A stretch of 38,725 nucleotides of DNA, from sequence record PZ502562.2; one strand, written 5' to 3'. How positions within the stretch are numbered: the first letter of the stretch is position 1; each line of letters opens with the position of its first letter. Shown here in pieces: positions 31,501 through 38,181 of the stretch. Source of the DNA: a phage. The position numbers and the translations under genes are program-made. The notes below the pieces were generated by a model. The model was not told the DNA's origin. It saw nothing but the letters and a program-made list of their open reading frames with translations, and ran no database searches.

Positions 31501-32552
31501 TTGGTACTCTTCGTTTCGGTACTCAGGAGTTAGCGGCTCGTTCCCCGTGGACGGTTATGCTAAATGGCACCACTAACTACATCATTGACGCTGCCCGTCA
31601 AGGTGTCCTTGGTGATATTGCAAGTGCGGTATTATCAGGGACTGGTGCTAAGTTTGGTAAGGCAAATTATCTTAAGTCTGCATCAATAAGTCCTGAGCAG
31701 TGGAATGGTATCAAGCAACTATTTCGAGACCACGCCACTCGTGATTCTGGAGGTAAGTTCACAATCAGGGACAAAAGAGCGTTCACCTATGACCCTCGCA
31801 CAATGGACCTGTGGAGACTTGCTGACAAAGTTGCAGGTGAGACAATCATGCGACCGCACAAGATTTCCTCACAGGACTCAGTTGCGTATGGGGCAGGCGT
31901 TAAGATGGTGATGCAGTTTAAGAACTTCGTCATTAAGTCTCTTAACGCCAGATTCGTGCGTAGCTTCTATGAGGCCACAAAGAACAACCGTGCGTTAGAC
32001 CAAGCGTTAACACACATTGTTGCCTGTGGACTAGCTGGTGGCTACTACGTTGGGCAGGCGCATCTAAAGGCCGCTTCCTTACAGGATGACAAACGTAAGG
32101 AGTACCTAAAGATGGCACTAGACCCGAAGATGATTGCCCATGCATCCATCTCTCGTAGCTCACATTTAGGTTCGCCACTTAGCATCTACGATATGATCGC
32201 TGGGGTGTTTGGTGATGACACCTATAAGTACACACGCTCCACGGTACTACCGAAGCAACCAGAAGAACGCGATCGCACAAAAGCGGTCACAGGTCGTCAG
32301 GTTACTGGTATGATTAGTGGTGCTTTAGGCGAGCAGATTCCTGCTTTAGGGTTCGCAGGGCAGGTTGGAGGTACGGCACTTAATGCTGTATCACTACTGA
32401 AAGCGCCCAACAAGGCTACCGAGATGGAGTTCCGTACAGGGATGTTTAATACAATGCGTGAGATTGTTCCGAACGACCCTATCACGCAGCAACTCATTAT
32501 GAAAATTTATGAGGCCAATGGTATCCACATCAAGGAGACACCTAGGAAATAA
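28578..32552 (+). CDS. 16: Internal core protein gp16 with N-terminal lytic transglycosylase domain
   Basis: 1324 aa; N-terminal SLT motif ...VAWTESRFQPTAKSKTGPLGMMQFT...; collinear with T7 gp16. Confidence 0.98.
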   Translation: MDKYDKNVPSEYDGLFQKAADANGVSYDLLRKVAWTESRFQPTAKSKTGPLGMMQFTKATAKAMGLNVTDGPDDDRLVPELSINAAARHLAELVNKFDGDELKAALAYNQGEGRLGAPQLEAYSKGDFSAISDEGRNYMRNLMDVAKSPMAGQLEAFGGITPKGKGIPSDVGLGDIKVEGKRKVTDAIPESTGLDIKGIEQEAPAKSFATDFWDHHKQKPSEYDDRSTFFGFKDAASAEIDNSVLGMAFRAGRLDNSFDVFKDVITPTRWNSTIWTPEELERIRTEVKNPAYLNVVTGGSPENLDDLIRLANENYENDLKKADAGIGAQLSAGIVGAAFDPLSYVPLVGVTGKGFKLINKALVVGAESAAINMASEGLRTSIVGGDANYTGAVLGGLVFGAGMSAISDAITAGLRRSKPEAEFNNEFVGPLMRMEARETAFNANSEDLSKMSTGSINFDREYGGVNYAPLDTEPGAVVLPQGQILSDTNPLNPQTLSEFEAINPERAARGISLGGFTEIGLKTLRSENTGVRSIARDLVRSPTGMESGSNGKFGSTADDIHSRLSSNDNRDWNLYYDKMREVMKDPEFTTGAPKMSKAEAVESIDRKIALAIEHPELQVNLSPKEMDLMRHVKGHYDLKRELMENPAVFGNPKAVSIFPGSRNKGTYIPRVYDTQSKNLYIQRLGSREALQEAIAESSLASYYLRPEVKARIDEHLMEVNGLKSTKEVTHEMVRKYAMDKAYGISHTDQFSSSSIVDENITGLVGIENNNFLEARNLFDTDVPTTLPDGSTFSVDDIRVFSQRILMPAYDRRVNGDIAIIGSSGKTTKELKDEIMVLSKQAEGNGKLKGEVEALKDTVKILTGRARRSPEGALGTALRSLNDMTFFAKNFYMPLQNFTEIAGMLVKGNVSAVTHGIPVINDWVNRSKPMRASEIKELHSMVFGKELDQLIRPSREDHISRLRESTDTNAVLANVVGTLRFGTQELAARSPWTVMLNGTTNYIIDAARQGVLGDIASAVLSGTGAKFGKANYLKSASISPEQWNGIKQLFRDHATRDSGGKFTIRDKRAFTYDPRTMDLWRLADKVAGETIMRPHKISSQDSVAYGAGVKMVMQFKNFVIKSLNARFVRSFYEATKNNRALDQALTHIVACGLAGGYYVGQAHLKAASLQDDKRKEYLKMALDPKMIAHASISRSSHLGSPLSIYDMIAGVFGDDTYKYTRSTVLPKQPEERDRTKAVTGRQVTGMISGALGEQIPALGFAGQVGGTALNAVSLLKAPNKATEMEFRTGMFNTMREIVPNDPITQQLIMKIYEANGIHIKETPRK

Positions 32553-32572
32553 TACGACTCACTATAGGGAGA
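32550..32572 (+). promoter_or_regulatory. T7-RNAP class III promoter phi17
   Basis: TAATACGACTCACTATAGGGAGA, overlapping the gene 16 stop. Confidence 0.9.
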
Positions 32573-32624: not shown

Positions 32625-34466
32625 ATGGCTAACGTAATTAAAACCGTTTTGACTTACCAGTTAGATGGCTCCACTCATGATTTTAATATCCCGTTTGAGT
32701 ATCTAGCCCGTAAGTTCGTAGTGGTGACTCTTATTGGTGTAGACCGTAAGGTCCTTACGCTTAATACAGACTATCGCTTTGCTACACGTACTACCATCTC
32801 ACTGACTAAGGCTTGGGGTCCATCCGATGGCTACACGACCATCGAGTTACGCCGAGTAACCTCCACGACCGACCGCTTGGTTGACTTTACGGACGGCTCA
32901 ATCCTCCGTGCGTATGACCTTAACGTTGCTCAGATTCAAACGATGCACGTAGCGGAGGAGGCGCGCGACCTGACTGCTGATACAATCGGTGTCAATAATG
33001 ACGGTCACTTGGATGCCCGTGGTCGGCGTGTAGTGAACGTTGGTAATGCGGTAGACCGCGGGGATGCGGTTAACTTGGGGATGCTTCAAGATTGGGACAA
33101 CTCCGCCCTGAATCAAGCAGACCGTTCGGAGAAGGAGGCTGATAGGGCAGAGGCCGCTGCGTCCCAAGCTGACAGTAGCGCTGCTAAGGCTCTTTCTTCT
33201 GAGAAAAGTGCTTCCACAAGTGCTACTAACGCACTCGCTTCGGAGAATGCAGCAAAGGCATCACAAGTGGCTGCGGCTGGTAGCGCAAGTTCGTCAGAAC
33301 AATCTAAGAACGAGGCAAATGCCTACAAAGAGGCCGCGCAAACTGCCGCGGACACCGCGTCCAACCATGAGGATAAAGCCAAGGAGTACATGGAGAGGGC
33401 CGAGGCTGTCGCCTGCTCCAAGGAGAATCCGGTATCTGAGATAACGTTCACTACTGGTGGGTCATTAGGTTCTGAAAGGGCCAAGGTCCGGGACACAGTT
33501 ACCAACCGCATCTACTACTGGATTGGGACCTTCCCCAAGGTAATACCTGAAAACTCCGTAGGAGAAGACCTTATAAAGGCAGATGGTGACCTGTGGGATT
33601 CTCTGCAAAACCCTAACGGTAAGTGGGTAGACGCGGGTAACAGCGTCCCTGCACTAAGAACCACATTAGGAGAAGGAGTACCCTTCAAGTACGAGACGTA
33701 CCCGAAGGATAACCTCAACGCCATTACTGAGCGTCAATCCAATAGGGTGCGTGTGGCTACGTGGAACATTTGGGGAGCAGGTGCTCAAGGTAACTTTGGT
33801 TCACTGGGTTCTGCCGATAGGATAAAGGCCCTACAGGAGCGATGGCTCAACCAAAAGCTAGACTACGTAGGTCTACAGGAGTGCTATTTCAACGACACAT
33901 TCTACCCATTCTCCATGTATACAATAGGTTCTCTCCACACTGCATTCGTACAGACGTGCGAACCTTATGAGTCTGGAATAACCATCCTGGATTTCGACTA
34001 CGGTACGGGATGTGTAAGCAGTGGCGCTGACGTGAAGATGTCTGGAGGAATCTATAAGGACAGCATCGGAAGCTCAGTGGATAAGGAGCGCCGAGCGTGG
34101 ACTCGCACAGAGACTACCATTAGGGGCCGTAAGTACGTAATATACAATACACATCTCAGCTATGATAGGGCGCGATTCACTCAGCAGCAGTCAGAGTTGA
34201 ACAACCTCCTATTAGCAGAGACTAACCCACAAGTAATCGTAATGGGAGATTTCAACCACGACGACATCACGTTGTTTCAGCCATTACTTGATGCCGGATG
34301 GTCTATGGGCCAGAACAAAGAGTTTAATACTAACAACACCGGCGGAAAATGGCACATTGATAATATACTGTACAAAGGGTTCTCTAAGAGAGTTGATAGA
34401 GGAACTCAGGACGCACCAAGTTCTCTATCTGACCATAAATTATTCTATGTGGAACTGGAGGTATAA
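32625..34466 (+). CDS. 17: Chimeric tail fibre: T7-like tail-attachment N-terminus, Ala/Ser-rich shaft, C-terminal EEP (endonuclease/exonuclease/phosphatase)-fold domain
   Basis: 613 aa. Residues 1 to about 150 match T7 gp17; the rest is unrelated to the T7 shaft and tip. C-terminal motifs in EEP order: VATWNIWG, DYVGLQECY, VIYNTHLSYD, VIVMGDFNHDD, SDHKLFYVE. Confidence 0.9.
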   Translation: MANVIKTVLTYQLDGSTHDFNIPFEYLARKFVVVTLIGVDRKVLTLNTDYRFATRTTISLTKAWGPSDGYTTIELRRVTSTTDRLVDFTDGSILRAYDLNVAQIQTMHVAEEARDLTADTIGVNNDGHLDARGRRVVNVGNAVDRGDAVNLGMLQDWDNSALNQADRSEKEADRAEAAASQADSSAAKALSSEKSASTSATNALASENAAKASQVAAAGSASSSEQSKNEANAYKEAAQTAADTASNHEDKAKEYMERAEAVACSKENPVSEITFTTGGSLGSERAKVRDTVTNRIYYWIGTFPKVIPENSVGEDLIKADGDLWDSLQNPNGKWVDAGNSVPALRTTLGEGVPFKYETYPKDNLNAITERQSNRVRVATWNIWGAGAQGNFGSLGSADRIKALQERWLNQKLDYVGLQECYFNDTFYPFSMYTIGSLHTAFVQTCEPYESGITILDFDYGTGCVSSGADVKMSGGIYKDSIGSSVDKERRAWTRTETTIRGRKYVIYNTHLSYDRARFTQQQSELNNLLLAETNPQVIVMGDFNHDDITLFQPLLDAGWSMGQNKEFNTNNTGGKWHIDNILYKGFSKRVDRGTQDAPSSLSDHKLFYVELEV

Positions 34467-34467
34467 C

Positions 34468-35277
34468 ATGACCAACAAACTACTAGTAAACACTGAGGTA
34501 GCTCTCGCGGATGGGGACGCTCTATCCCTAGAGATGGTTCGTATGCGAAACGAACTGACAATCGCTAAGGCGGTTCAGGGTGAGACCCATTTCTACAAGA
34601 GTGTTAAGGATATGGGCATTACCGGGAAGGTTACGCTACTCTCCATTGCGAAGAGGATGCGCCGACGCTCTGTCCTCATCGTGAGTGTGTACGGAGGGAC
34701 CAGTGATGGTCCTGACCTTCCGCTCCCTTACTTCAACTCAGGGACTCCTGTTTATATGTCCGGCATACTTTGGGCGTACAAGATGGAGGATGAGAAAAAA
34801 GTCTATTTCGAGTGGCGTAACGAGAACATGACTGCCCGGTGTAACTATAACGCACACGTTGAGGACAAGGTTACTCCGTGGGTGTTCGATATGCTACCTA
34901 AGATGAATGCTACGGCTGGTCCGGGATACTGGCAGAACAGGATGTCAAATATTTGGGTTCCGGGGACGTATTACTTCACTAGAGACCAGATGAACGGCTT
35001 CACCGATAGACCTGTACTTGGAGGGGGCTACTTGGAGGTAATGAATGCAGGTAACTCACCTACTTCTGACAGAAACTATGTATTCACCTTAAACACTTCG
35101 GACCAACACAAGTGGTCCCGTCAAAATGATGGGGATTGGAGAATCATCCCTGTGTGCTTCACCGCAGCCGTACATGACAGCCAGATGCGCGTGGGTGATA
35201 TGAAAGTGGCAAGCAATGGTATGCTCCATATCAGAGTAAGCTCCAGTAAAGTGGGCCAGATTGCCACCGTTGGATAA
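34468..35277 (+). CDS. Hypothetical 269-aa protein downstream of the tail fibre; no counterpart in T7
   Basis: ATG 34468 lies 1 nt after the gene 17 TAA, with RBS GGAGG at 34457-34461. The ORF track shows a longer version from 34288 overlapping gene 17. Aromatic/Asn/Gly-rich, no signal peptide, no recognisable catalytic motif. Confidence 0.75.
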   Translation: MTNKLLVNTEVALADGDALSLEMVRMRNELTIAKAVQGETHFYKSVKDMGITGKVTLLSIAKRMRRRSVLIVSVYGGTSDGPDLPLPYFNSGTPVYMSGILWAYKMEDEKKVYFEWRNENMTARCNYNAHVEDKVTPWVFDMLPKMNATAGPGYWQNRMSNIWVPGTYYFTRDQMNGFTDRPVLGGGYLEVMNAGNSPTSDRNYVFTLNTSDQHKWSRQNDGDWRIIPVCFTAAVHDSQMRVGDMKVASNGMLHIRVSSSKVGQIATVG

Positions 35278-35290
35278 ATCAGGAGGTATC

Positions 35291-38158: not shown

Positions 38159-38181
38159 TAATACGACTCACTATAGGGAGA
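38159..38181 (+). promoter_or_regulatory. T7-RNAP promoter phiOR
   Basis: TAATACGACTCACTATAGGGAGA, exact consensus, +1 G at 38176. Confidence 0.9.

Follow-up and report, generated by a model that had tools for sequence, protein, structure and literature searches.

The phage genome of sequence record PZ502562.2 (38,725 nucleotides, here called the window) carries a chimeric tail fibre gene, gene 17 (32625..34466, + strand, 613 aa), in which a T7 anchor, a putative coiled-coil shaft and a putative tailspike-type neck are followed by a domain of the endonuclease/exonuclease/phosphatase (EEP) fold. Directly behind it lies a second gene (34468..35277, + strand, 269 aa), the counterpart of gene 17.01 of the Citrobacter phages CR8 and CR44b, whose receptor-binding-protein-like product is called the partner below. 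We give about an even chance to the explanation that both proteins form an enzymatic receptor-binding module: the EEP domain would hydrolyse phosphodiester bridges in a glycan of the host surface, most probably the O-antigen, and the partner would do the binding.

The C-terminus of gp17 is an EEP domain with a complete catalytic set

The EEP-fold phosphoesterase domain extends over aa 378-613 of gp17 (33756..34463, + strand) and was delimited with Pfam, a structure model, Foldseek and residue invariance. The Pfam profile PF03372 (Exo_endo_phos) aligned over its whole length (model positions 1-225 of 225) with aa 378-604, at E 2.9e-12 and 47.3 bits for a curated gathering cut-off of 24.5, and also matched 44 of the 45 relatives described below. 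An AlphaFold2 model of aa 372-613 (predicted TM-score 0.80, mean predicted local distance difference test 72.9) was compared by Foldseek with the PDB and matched 178 chains at E<=1e-3. Those listed were all EEP enzymes (query TM-score 0.58-0.69), with human neutral sphingomyelinase 8j2f on top (3.9e-12) and TDP2, Bacteroides EEP proteins and CNOT6L among the others. Structure matches in BFVD were likewise all EEP proteins. No pectate-lyase or beta-helix Pfam match was found in gp17, and the model itself shows the four-layer alpha/beta sandwich of EEP proteins. With the EEP domain alone, phmmer found nothing among PDB sequences; a profile of the EEP family gave partial and weak matches to beta-hemolysin and sphingomyelinase C (E 4e-4 to 0.014). 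A profile made with full-length homologues was set aside because N-terminal tailspike anchors dominated it, and a trimmed alignment and the fold search were used instead. Chance or artefact as the source of the EEP match is ruled out by profile, fold and conservation.

The first-pass annotation of this DNA had read five EEP-like motifs into the region that starts at codon 372 of gene 17 (coordinate 33738), and had suggested profile and structure searches of the C-terminus. All five motifs are present in the 613-aa translation: VATWNIWG (N381), DYVGLQECY (E419), VIYNTHLSYD (H510), VIVMGDFNHDD (D542 and N544) and SDHKLFYVE (D603 and H604). The searches returned significant EEP matches and the EEP fold, and confirmed that the motifs follow one another in the EEP order. 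A further motif, IDNILY, adds D579 and completes the canonical set, so that the catalytic residues of gp17 are N381, E419, H510, D542, N544, D579, D603 and H604.

When 11 copies of the domain from phages and prophages were aligned (31-48% identity), all eight of these residues proved invariant, and they are also intact in the divergent Se-J copy, in CR8 and in metagenomic and prophage copies. Searched exhaustively with phmmer, 1.84 billion representative proteins yielded 46 clusters at E<=1e-10. Among 45 of the top-scoring relatives (22-45% identity, mean column identity 14%), E419, H510, D542, N544, D579, D603 and H604 are the sole invariant columns, and N381 is retained in at least 90% of the sequences. 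Because metal-binding and acid/base residues are exactly kept amid 22-45% identity, as under purifying selection, the domain is probably an active phosphoesterase. The annotation had allowed for either an enzyme or an inert scaffold, and the residue pattern now leans towards an enzyme.

A receptor-binding-protein-like gene is coupled to the EEP gene

The partner gene starts at ATG 34468, one base past the gene 17 stop, and its GGAGG ribosome-binding site (34457..34461, + strand) lies within the last gene 17 codons, 6 nt before the ATG. A 329-aa reading frame, the longest here (TTG 34288-35277, overlapping the 3' end of gene 17), was rejected because ATG 34468 has the GGAGG and fits the starts of the homologues. 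No Pfam match was obtained for the partner. Its counterparts are gene 17.01 in CR8 and CR44b and cds9 in CrRp3, at 43-49% identity; each is located directly behind an EEP gene, and the EEP domains of the same three phages are 44-48% identical to that of gp17. The GenBank record of CR44b describes 17.01 as a 'phage virion protein' with 'matches in mass spectrometry analysis', and the CR8 homologue is annotated likewise. The predicted model of the partner resembles phage receptor-binding proteins and pyocin fibre tips. The EEP domain had been taken for the tip of the fibre, which it probably is not: a receptor-binding-protein-like gene follows one base downstream, translationally coupled and syntenic.

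An abutting, co-oriented downstream gene is also present in vB_CtuP_B1, Se-J, PM116, PA28, BEK2 and W22, and nine downstream proteins can all be aligned over a core of about 230 aa. Hidden Markov models (HMMs) of the partner core and of the EEP domain were then run over all fetched loci. A partner match starts within about 30 nt of the EEP stop in 19 of 19 EEP loci (about 13 distinct), among them loci outside HMM building, namely CR8, metagenomic contigs from IMG/VR and Proteus mirabilis prophages. The IMG/VR scan gave four new loci, and the homology of the Proteus prophage partner was scored at 99.1% by hhalign. A profile scan of a genome collection detected no relative of the partner, and an EEP scan of species-representative genomes detected only distant Firmicutes EEPs, without a partner.

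Identities of the EEP domain and of the partner are in step in the pairs CR44b-CR8 (77 and 74%), BEK2-W22 (57 and 56%) and window-CrRp3 (48 and 49%); over 67 pairs, which are non-independent, the divergences of the two proteins correlate with a Spearman coefficient of 0.42. The N-terminal 75 or so residues of the partner are conserved across all carriers, and the carrier proteins have in common only the EEP domain and the roughly 30 residues preceding it. Long versions of the partner, in BEK2 and W22, bear an S74 trimer-folding chaperone domain. According to its GenBank note, the BEK2 homologue (L004 4228-5433) 'binds to the polymannose O-antigen accelerating adsorption of T5 phage'. Transfer of this note from T5 pb1 is probable, and may go back to the C-terminal Peptidase_S74 chaperone domain that both proteins have; with its receptor-binding part, the BEK2 protein belongs to the partner family of the EEP module.

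The module is carried by phages of six groups and by prophages

The first-pass annotation had called a fibre of this type unusual. It is indeed rare, but not unique, since the same module was found in phages of Citrobacter (CR8, CR44b, CrRp3), Cronobacter (vB_CtuP_B1), Proteus (PM116), Escherichia (BEK2/BEK3, W22) and Salmonella (Se-J), and in prophages of Proteus and Morganella, which are its main prophage reservoir. It spans six phage groups, that is, three Autographiviridae subfamilies, Drexlerviridae, Stephanstirmvirinae and Ackermannviridae. The anchors of the carrier proteins are the T7 N-domain, the P22 head-binding domain, the TSP1/Gp66 N-domain or a short K1-5-type N-peptide. Behind P22 head-binding or TSP1/Gp66 anchors the EEP domain is joined directly, at the position usually held by a beta-helix.

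Two further contexts are informative with respect to the target. In a Proteus mirabilis prophage (GCA_031872735.1, L009 5001-9635), an EEP protein of 412 aa (Tail_spike_N plus EEP) and a partner of 222 aa end a siphovirus-type tail module made of tape measure, DUF1833, NlpC/P60 and an 822-aa tip protein. They are directly followed by a divergent O-antigen glucosylation operon of the gtrABC type (GtrA, glycosyltransferase-2, Glucos_trans_II). In Proteus phage PM116 (L006 1421-4840), a 614-aa pectate-lyase-like spike is encoded just upstream of the EEP protein (290 aa) and the partner (214 aa); since this classical spike adjoins the pair, two alternative receptor-binding systems on the PM116 virion are suggested. 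The tailspike slot, the gtr operon and the PM116 spike all point to a serotype-specific surface glycan as target.

In the cellular world, more distant relatives of the EEP domain occur within giant secreted proteins, as N-terminal or internal modules (Breznakia pachnodae L022 3848-8704; P0088, P0055, P0086, P0045). They are combined there with F5/8-type-C and CBM4/9 carbohydrate-binding modules, Big_2 repeats and a PL8 polysaccharide lyase, with cohesin/dockerin, or with a ConA-like lectin, metallophosphoesterase and FIVAR. The fusions to carbohydrate-binding modules and PL8 suggest extracellular work on glycoconjugates.

Another carrier is recorded as 'Pseudomonas phage PA28' (OM234793.1, L007), a Novosibovirus in an UNVERIFIED record. 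The EEP domains nearest to its own are found in Proteus phage PM116 (44%) and on a metagenomic contig (L015, 40%), and the Pseudomonas host label looks doubtful.

Shaft, neck, EEP domain and partner form an exchanged cassette

The first 155 residues of gp17 (32625..33089, + strand) match the T7 gp17 N-terminal tail-attachment domain (PF03906, Phage_T7_tail) at E 6.2e-66, as the annotation had recognised, and the first 400-420 nt or so of gene 17 are 93-99% identical in DNA to T7, IME390 and PHB20. This T7-type N-terminus anchors the protein to the tail. It is followed by an Ala/Ser/Glu-rich stretch, seen in the composition of the translation (aa 156-267, 33090..33425, + strand), which presumably is a shaft formed by a trimeric coiled coil. 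This shaft is long and of low complexity and makes the fibre about 125 aa longer than the CR8 and CR44b versions; its origin is not traceable because the low-complexity filter of BLAST masks it. The PHROG tail-fibre families match gp17 over aa 1-261/267 only. Among PHROGs, nothing beyond 'tail fiber protein' or 'unknown function' was found for gp17 and the partner, and NCBIfam gave no match for either.

A neck resembling the N-terminal domain of the TSP1/Gp66 tailspikes, with the motif YYWIGTFPKVIPENS, precedes the EEP domain (aa 270-311, 33432..33557, + strand). In gp17 the corresponding profile, PF18668 (Tail_spike_N), gives a weak match under the cut-off (E 0.0019), and tblastn with this stretch matches other phage fibres. 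Tail_spike_N is clear in 12 of the 45 homologues, and P22 Head_binding is present in three others; BEK2 and Se-J match Tail_spike_N with E-values of 7e-15 and 1.4e-24.

When the window was compared with IME390 by blastn, homology stopped at 33025 (gp17 aa ~134) and restarted at 35290, at the start of the holin gene 17.5. Because of this break, shaft, neck, EEP domain and partner are delimited as a 2.26 kb cassette swapped as a unit (33026..35289, + strand), with conserved T7-like flanks on both sides. It appears to have taken the place of the T7-type shaft and tip as one unit. The C-terminal pyramid and tip of T7 gp17 are not present: DNA likeness to T7-like fibres ends at 33025, and the EEP domain is found instead. 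As judged from sequence, gp17 is a homologue of T7 gp17 in its first ~267 residues only. No near-identical cassette DNA was found among 50,697 phage records or in 5,426 complete E. coli genomes, and the latter thus gave no hint of the host serotype.

A phosphodiester-containing O-antigen as candidate substrate

In the mechanism that we propose, each chain of the trimeric fibre would bear an active metal-dependent phosphodiesterase. The partner would use its conserved first ~75 residues to dock on the EEP domain and would form the true distal tip; docking on this domain is suggested by the fact that it is the only part common to all carrier proteins. The enzyme would cut phosphodiester bridges in a host surface glycan, the likeliest substrate being an O-antigen with sugar-1-phosphate-sugar or alditol-phosphate links, for example the GlcNAc-1-P-6-Glc (GlcNAc, N-acetylglucosamine) of the O152 type. 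Cutting would open the O-antigen layer to the phage, as beta-helix tailspike depolymerases do via glycosidic bonds.

The strongest lead towards such a substrate comes from C. rodentium, three phages of which, from two subfamilies, bear the module (CR8, CR44b and CrRp3). The C. rodentium O-antigen is O152-like (PMC12501221), and alpha-GlcNAc-(1-P-6)-alpha-Glc is present in the O152 unit (PMC3989065); sugar-P-sugar bridges occur in only 6 of 182 E. coli serogroups (PMC9912281). The host range of CrRp3 comprises only C. rodentium and rough E. coli K-12, among 32 other strains, of which 27 are E. coli (PMC7412075). This range is the one to be expected from an O-antigen-specific enzyme, in a phage that needs either the removal of one particular O-antigen or a host with none at all. 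As for Proteus, ribitol is found in five O-antigens (PMC5560731), and at least one of them, that of O53, is described as teichoic-acid-like (PMC5560731; title cited in PMC3989065). A receptor study of the C. rodentium phage Eifel2 was irrelevant, this phage being a Felixounavirus without the module.

Several observations weigh against a binding partner on an O-antigen phosphodiesterase. That the partner docks on the EEP domain is a deduction from synteny only, the N-terminal 37 residues of the partner are unmodelled, and in the EEP model a loop (aa ~423-458) is disordered, with 36 low-confidence residues. The host correlation involves one well-documented host, C. rodentium, and BEK2 was propagated on a rough K-12 derivative. 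The sequence and fold neighbours of the domain (sphingomyelinases, TDP2, nucleases) point to no glycan substrate, and the FIVAR plus metallophosphoesterase architectures of some cellular relatives are typical of surface nucleases. An assembly of Salmonella enterica serovar Newport includes a contig of 39.5 kb that encodes a partner homologue (P0014, 44% identity). To judge from its size, this contig may represent the genome of a T7-like phage that was assembled together with the isolate, and we know of no phosphodiester links in the Newport O-antigen, which makes it a possible counter-example.

In a reading that we consider unlikely, the EEP domain would act not on the O-antigen backbone but on a phospho-lipid or a target in the lipopolysaccharide core, like a sphingomyelinase/phospholipase C or a phosphatase. 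Targets would then be the phosphodiester anchor of the phosphoglyceride-linked enterobacterial common antigen (ECA-PG), phosphoethanolamine or phosphate of the core or lipid A, or outer-membrane phospholipids, and their cleavage would expose or create a receptor bound by the partner. Beta-hemolysin and sphingomyelinase C are indeed the sole solved-structure sequence matches (E ~4e-4), human neutral sphingomyelinase heads the Foldseek matches, and the identified hosts are all Enterobacterales, with ECA and a phosphorylated core in common. ECA-PG is phosphodiester-linked (PMC10743462), and rough K-12 supports both CrRp3 (PMC7412075) and BEK2. However, EEP domain and partner diverge at the pace of specificity determinants (31-57% identity between hosts), which is unexpected for a target shared by the Enterobacterales, the module is located in the tailspike slot and beside seroconversion genes, and the likeness to sphingomyelinases is weak, TDP2 and uncharacterised EEPs scoring equally. 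A reading that we find distinctly unlikely makes the EEP domain a non-catalytic scaffold or lectin-like docking platform, its catalytic residues being kept for structural or ligand-binding reasons and the partner alone setting binding. The obligate linkage of a receptor-binding-protein-like partner would agree with it, and a binding use of the EEP fold is conceivable. Nevertheless, pseudo-enzymes normally lose some catalytic residues, whereas here seven of them, with the metal-binding Glu and the general-base His among them, do not vary across 45 sequences, at least 90% of which also retain N381.

Nucleases are common among EEP enzymes (DNase I, ExoIII, TDP2), and some cellular relatives combine FIVAR, metallophosphoesterase and EEP as cell-wall-anchored nucleases do; an extracellular nuclease that acts on biofilm-matrix or capsule-associated DNA and eases access to the cell is nevertheless improbable in our view. 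A generic DNA substrate leaves unexplained the rapid co-divergence with a receptor-binding partner, the serotype-specific tailspike slot and the fusions of relatives to carbohydrate-binding modules and polysaccharide lyase; moreover, a virion-borne nuclease beside the DNA exit channel would be expected to endanger the genome of the phage itself. Finally, the EEP domain would be the real tip if the partner were a mere assembly chaperone of the lambda Tfa or T4 gp38 type. Chaperone genes are often found behind fibre genes, and the tight translational coupling fits this role. The partner model, however, matches receptor-binding domains and not known chaperones, the BEK2 and W22 versions possess their own S74 intramolecular chaperone, a mark of a structural trimeric fibre, and the CR8/CR44b homologue is annotated as a virion protein by mass spectrometry, all of which makes a chaperone very improbable.

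A wider proposal built on the O-antigen phosphodiesterase and its binding partner is put forward only tentatively. It holds that the module represents an undescribed receptor-destroying class, in which an EEP glycosyl-phosphodiesterase depolymerises phosphodiester-bridged O-antigens (O152-type GlcNAc-1-P-6-Glc and teichoic-acid-like O-chains), carries an obligate, separately encoded trimeric receptor-binding protein docked on the enzyme domain itself and moves between podoviruses, siphoviruses and myoviruses by anchor swap.

Comparison with known systems

The closest systems are gene 17 plus 17.01 of CR8 and CR44b (Kayfunavirus) and cds10 plus cds9 of CrRp3 (Vectrevirus), which form the same two-gene module with abutting or overlapping genes. 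CR8 and CR44b also have the EEP domain behind a T7-type N-terminus, in fusion proteins of 485-487 aa that contrast with the 613-aa window fibre and its extended, presumably coiled-coil shaft; in CrRp3 it is a separate 289-aa protein in the tailspike slot. Unlike these three phages, the window harbours the module in a Teseptimavirus-like genome with exact T7 promoters.

In the P22 and Sf6 endorhamnosidases, the K1F and K1-5 endosialidase, CBA120 TSP1-4 and the G7C gp63.1 esterase, an N-terminal virion anchor and a neck are followed by an enzyme domain that cleaves or alters a serotype-specific surface glycan. The window fibre with its putative neck would have the same plan, and the EEP homologues use anchors identical to those of enzymatic tailspikes (P22 Head_binding, TSP1/Gp66 N-domain). 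The EEP domain differs from them in being a globular alpha/beta sandwich instead of a trimeric parallel beta-helix or an SGNH esterase, in its predicted chemistry (phosphodiester hydrolysis in place of glycoside hydrolysis, lyase action or deacetylation) and in that binding is apparently handed to a separate polypeptide. An adjacent second receptor-binding protein is known from G7C gp63.1-gp66, the CBA120 TSP complex, DT57C LtfA-LtfB and T2/T6-type gp37-gp38. That the partner is carried on the first protein and not on the tail is suggested by synteny across unrelated tail types. Known branched systems dock by adaptor domains (T4 gp10-like, XD), whereas in the EEP module the enzyme domain is the only shared carrier element.

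Sphingomyelinase C/beta-hemolysin, human neutral sphingomyelinase and TDP2 share with the fibre domain its fold and its catalytic constellation (Asn, Glu, His, Asp-x-Asn, Asp and Asp-His). The fibre domain is only 13-20% identical to these enzymes, has no sign of a membrane-inserting hairpin or a DNA-binding grasp and, unlike them, is fused to a virion fibre. In cytolethal distending toxin, the EEP subunit CdtB is complexed with the lectin-like CdtA/CdtC encoded next to it; this is an analogy only, CdtB being a nuclease delivered into eukaryotic cells and its partners not being homologous to the fibre partner. In phages of Gram-positive bacteria, the phi29 gp12 appendages, which act on teichoic acid, and staphylococcal tail proteins with a glycerophosphodiester phosphodiesterase (GDPD) domain are proposed to cut phosphodiesters in adsorption. 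They differ from the EEP module in fold (beta-helix and GDPD TIM barrel), in their teichoic acid substrates and in having no partner protein.

Novelty and significance

Characterised tail fibres among the close homologues would have told against the first-pass annotation. The homologues found carry automatic database labels ('endonuclease/exonuclease/phosphatase family' or 'tail fiber/spike domain-containing'), and none is characterised. The 2014 records of CR8 and CR44b mark the EEP region as an unlabelled feature. The presence of the domain is thus not new, since database pipelines already label it. The full-text literature searched yielded no discussion or test of an EEP-type phage fibre or spike, and no description of a phosphodiesterase-type breach of the surface coat by phages of Gram-negative bacteria; the genome papers of CR8/CR44b and CrRp3 leave the domain undiscussed. 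In a 2023 review of coliphages that target the O-antigen, the activities listed are confined to depolymerase, lyase and esterase, and the phage enzymes reviewed as acting on surface glycans of Gram-negative bacteria belong to the glycoside hydrolases, the lyases and the O-acetyl esterases (PMC10743462). As far as we can tell, novelty lies in the obligate partner, in the cassette structure and in the link to phosphodiester O-antigens.

If the proposal is true, a phosphodiesterase-fold module would be a fourth chemistry beside hydrolases, lyases and esterases, and would explain how phages enter past the minority of O-antigens and capsules with phosphate-bridged backbones, which are known from 6 of 182 E. 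coli serogroups and from several Proteus O-antigens that contain ribitol. C. rodentium and its phages CR8, CR44b and CrRp3 are laboratory systems, which makes the hypothesis directly testable. An enzyme plus a binder would be a compact and portable specificity cassette of possible use in engineering T7-type phages, and the enzymes might serve to remove phosphodiester-linked glycans.

Genome setting and promoters

The window is a nearly complete T7-like genome, and its first 20 kb are 91-93% identical to Serratia phage Pila, Shigella phage ESh6 and Yersinia phage WW2. A 613-aa protein 99% identical to gp17 is present in a public protein library (P0019), and both gp17 and the partner have 99% identical copies on a short contig from sequencing run SRR18693238.

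A T7 class III promoter, TAATACGACTCACTATAGGGAGA, is located at the phi17 position (32550..32572, + strand) with the exact consensus and 0 mismatches, where 0 matches are expected by chance. The next T7-type promoter on the + strand is at 38159, and no terminator-like site was found on this strand between 32400 and 35600; gene 17 and the partner gene are transcribed from the phi17 promoter as one late transcript. Eleven T7-type promoters are present in the window (334-38181), six of which have the exact class III consensus (16887, 19828, 20866, 25222, 32550 and 38159). Because of these six exact matches, the phage RNA polymerase should have the promoter specificity of T7, and moving the cassette into T7 should therefore be straightforward.

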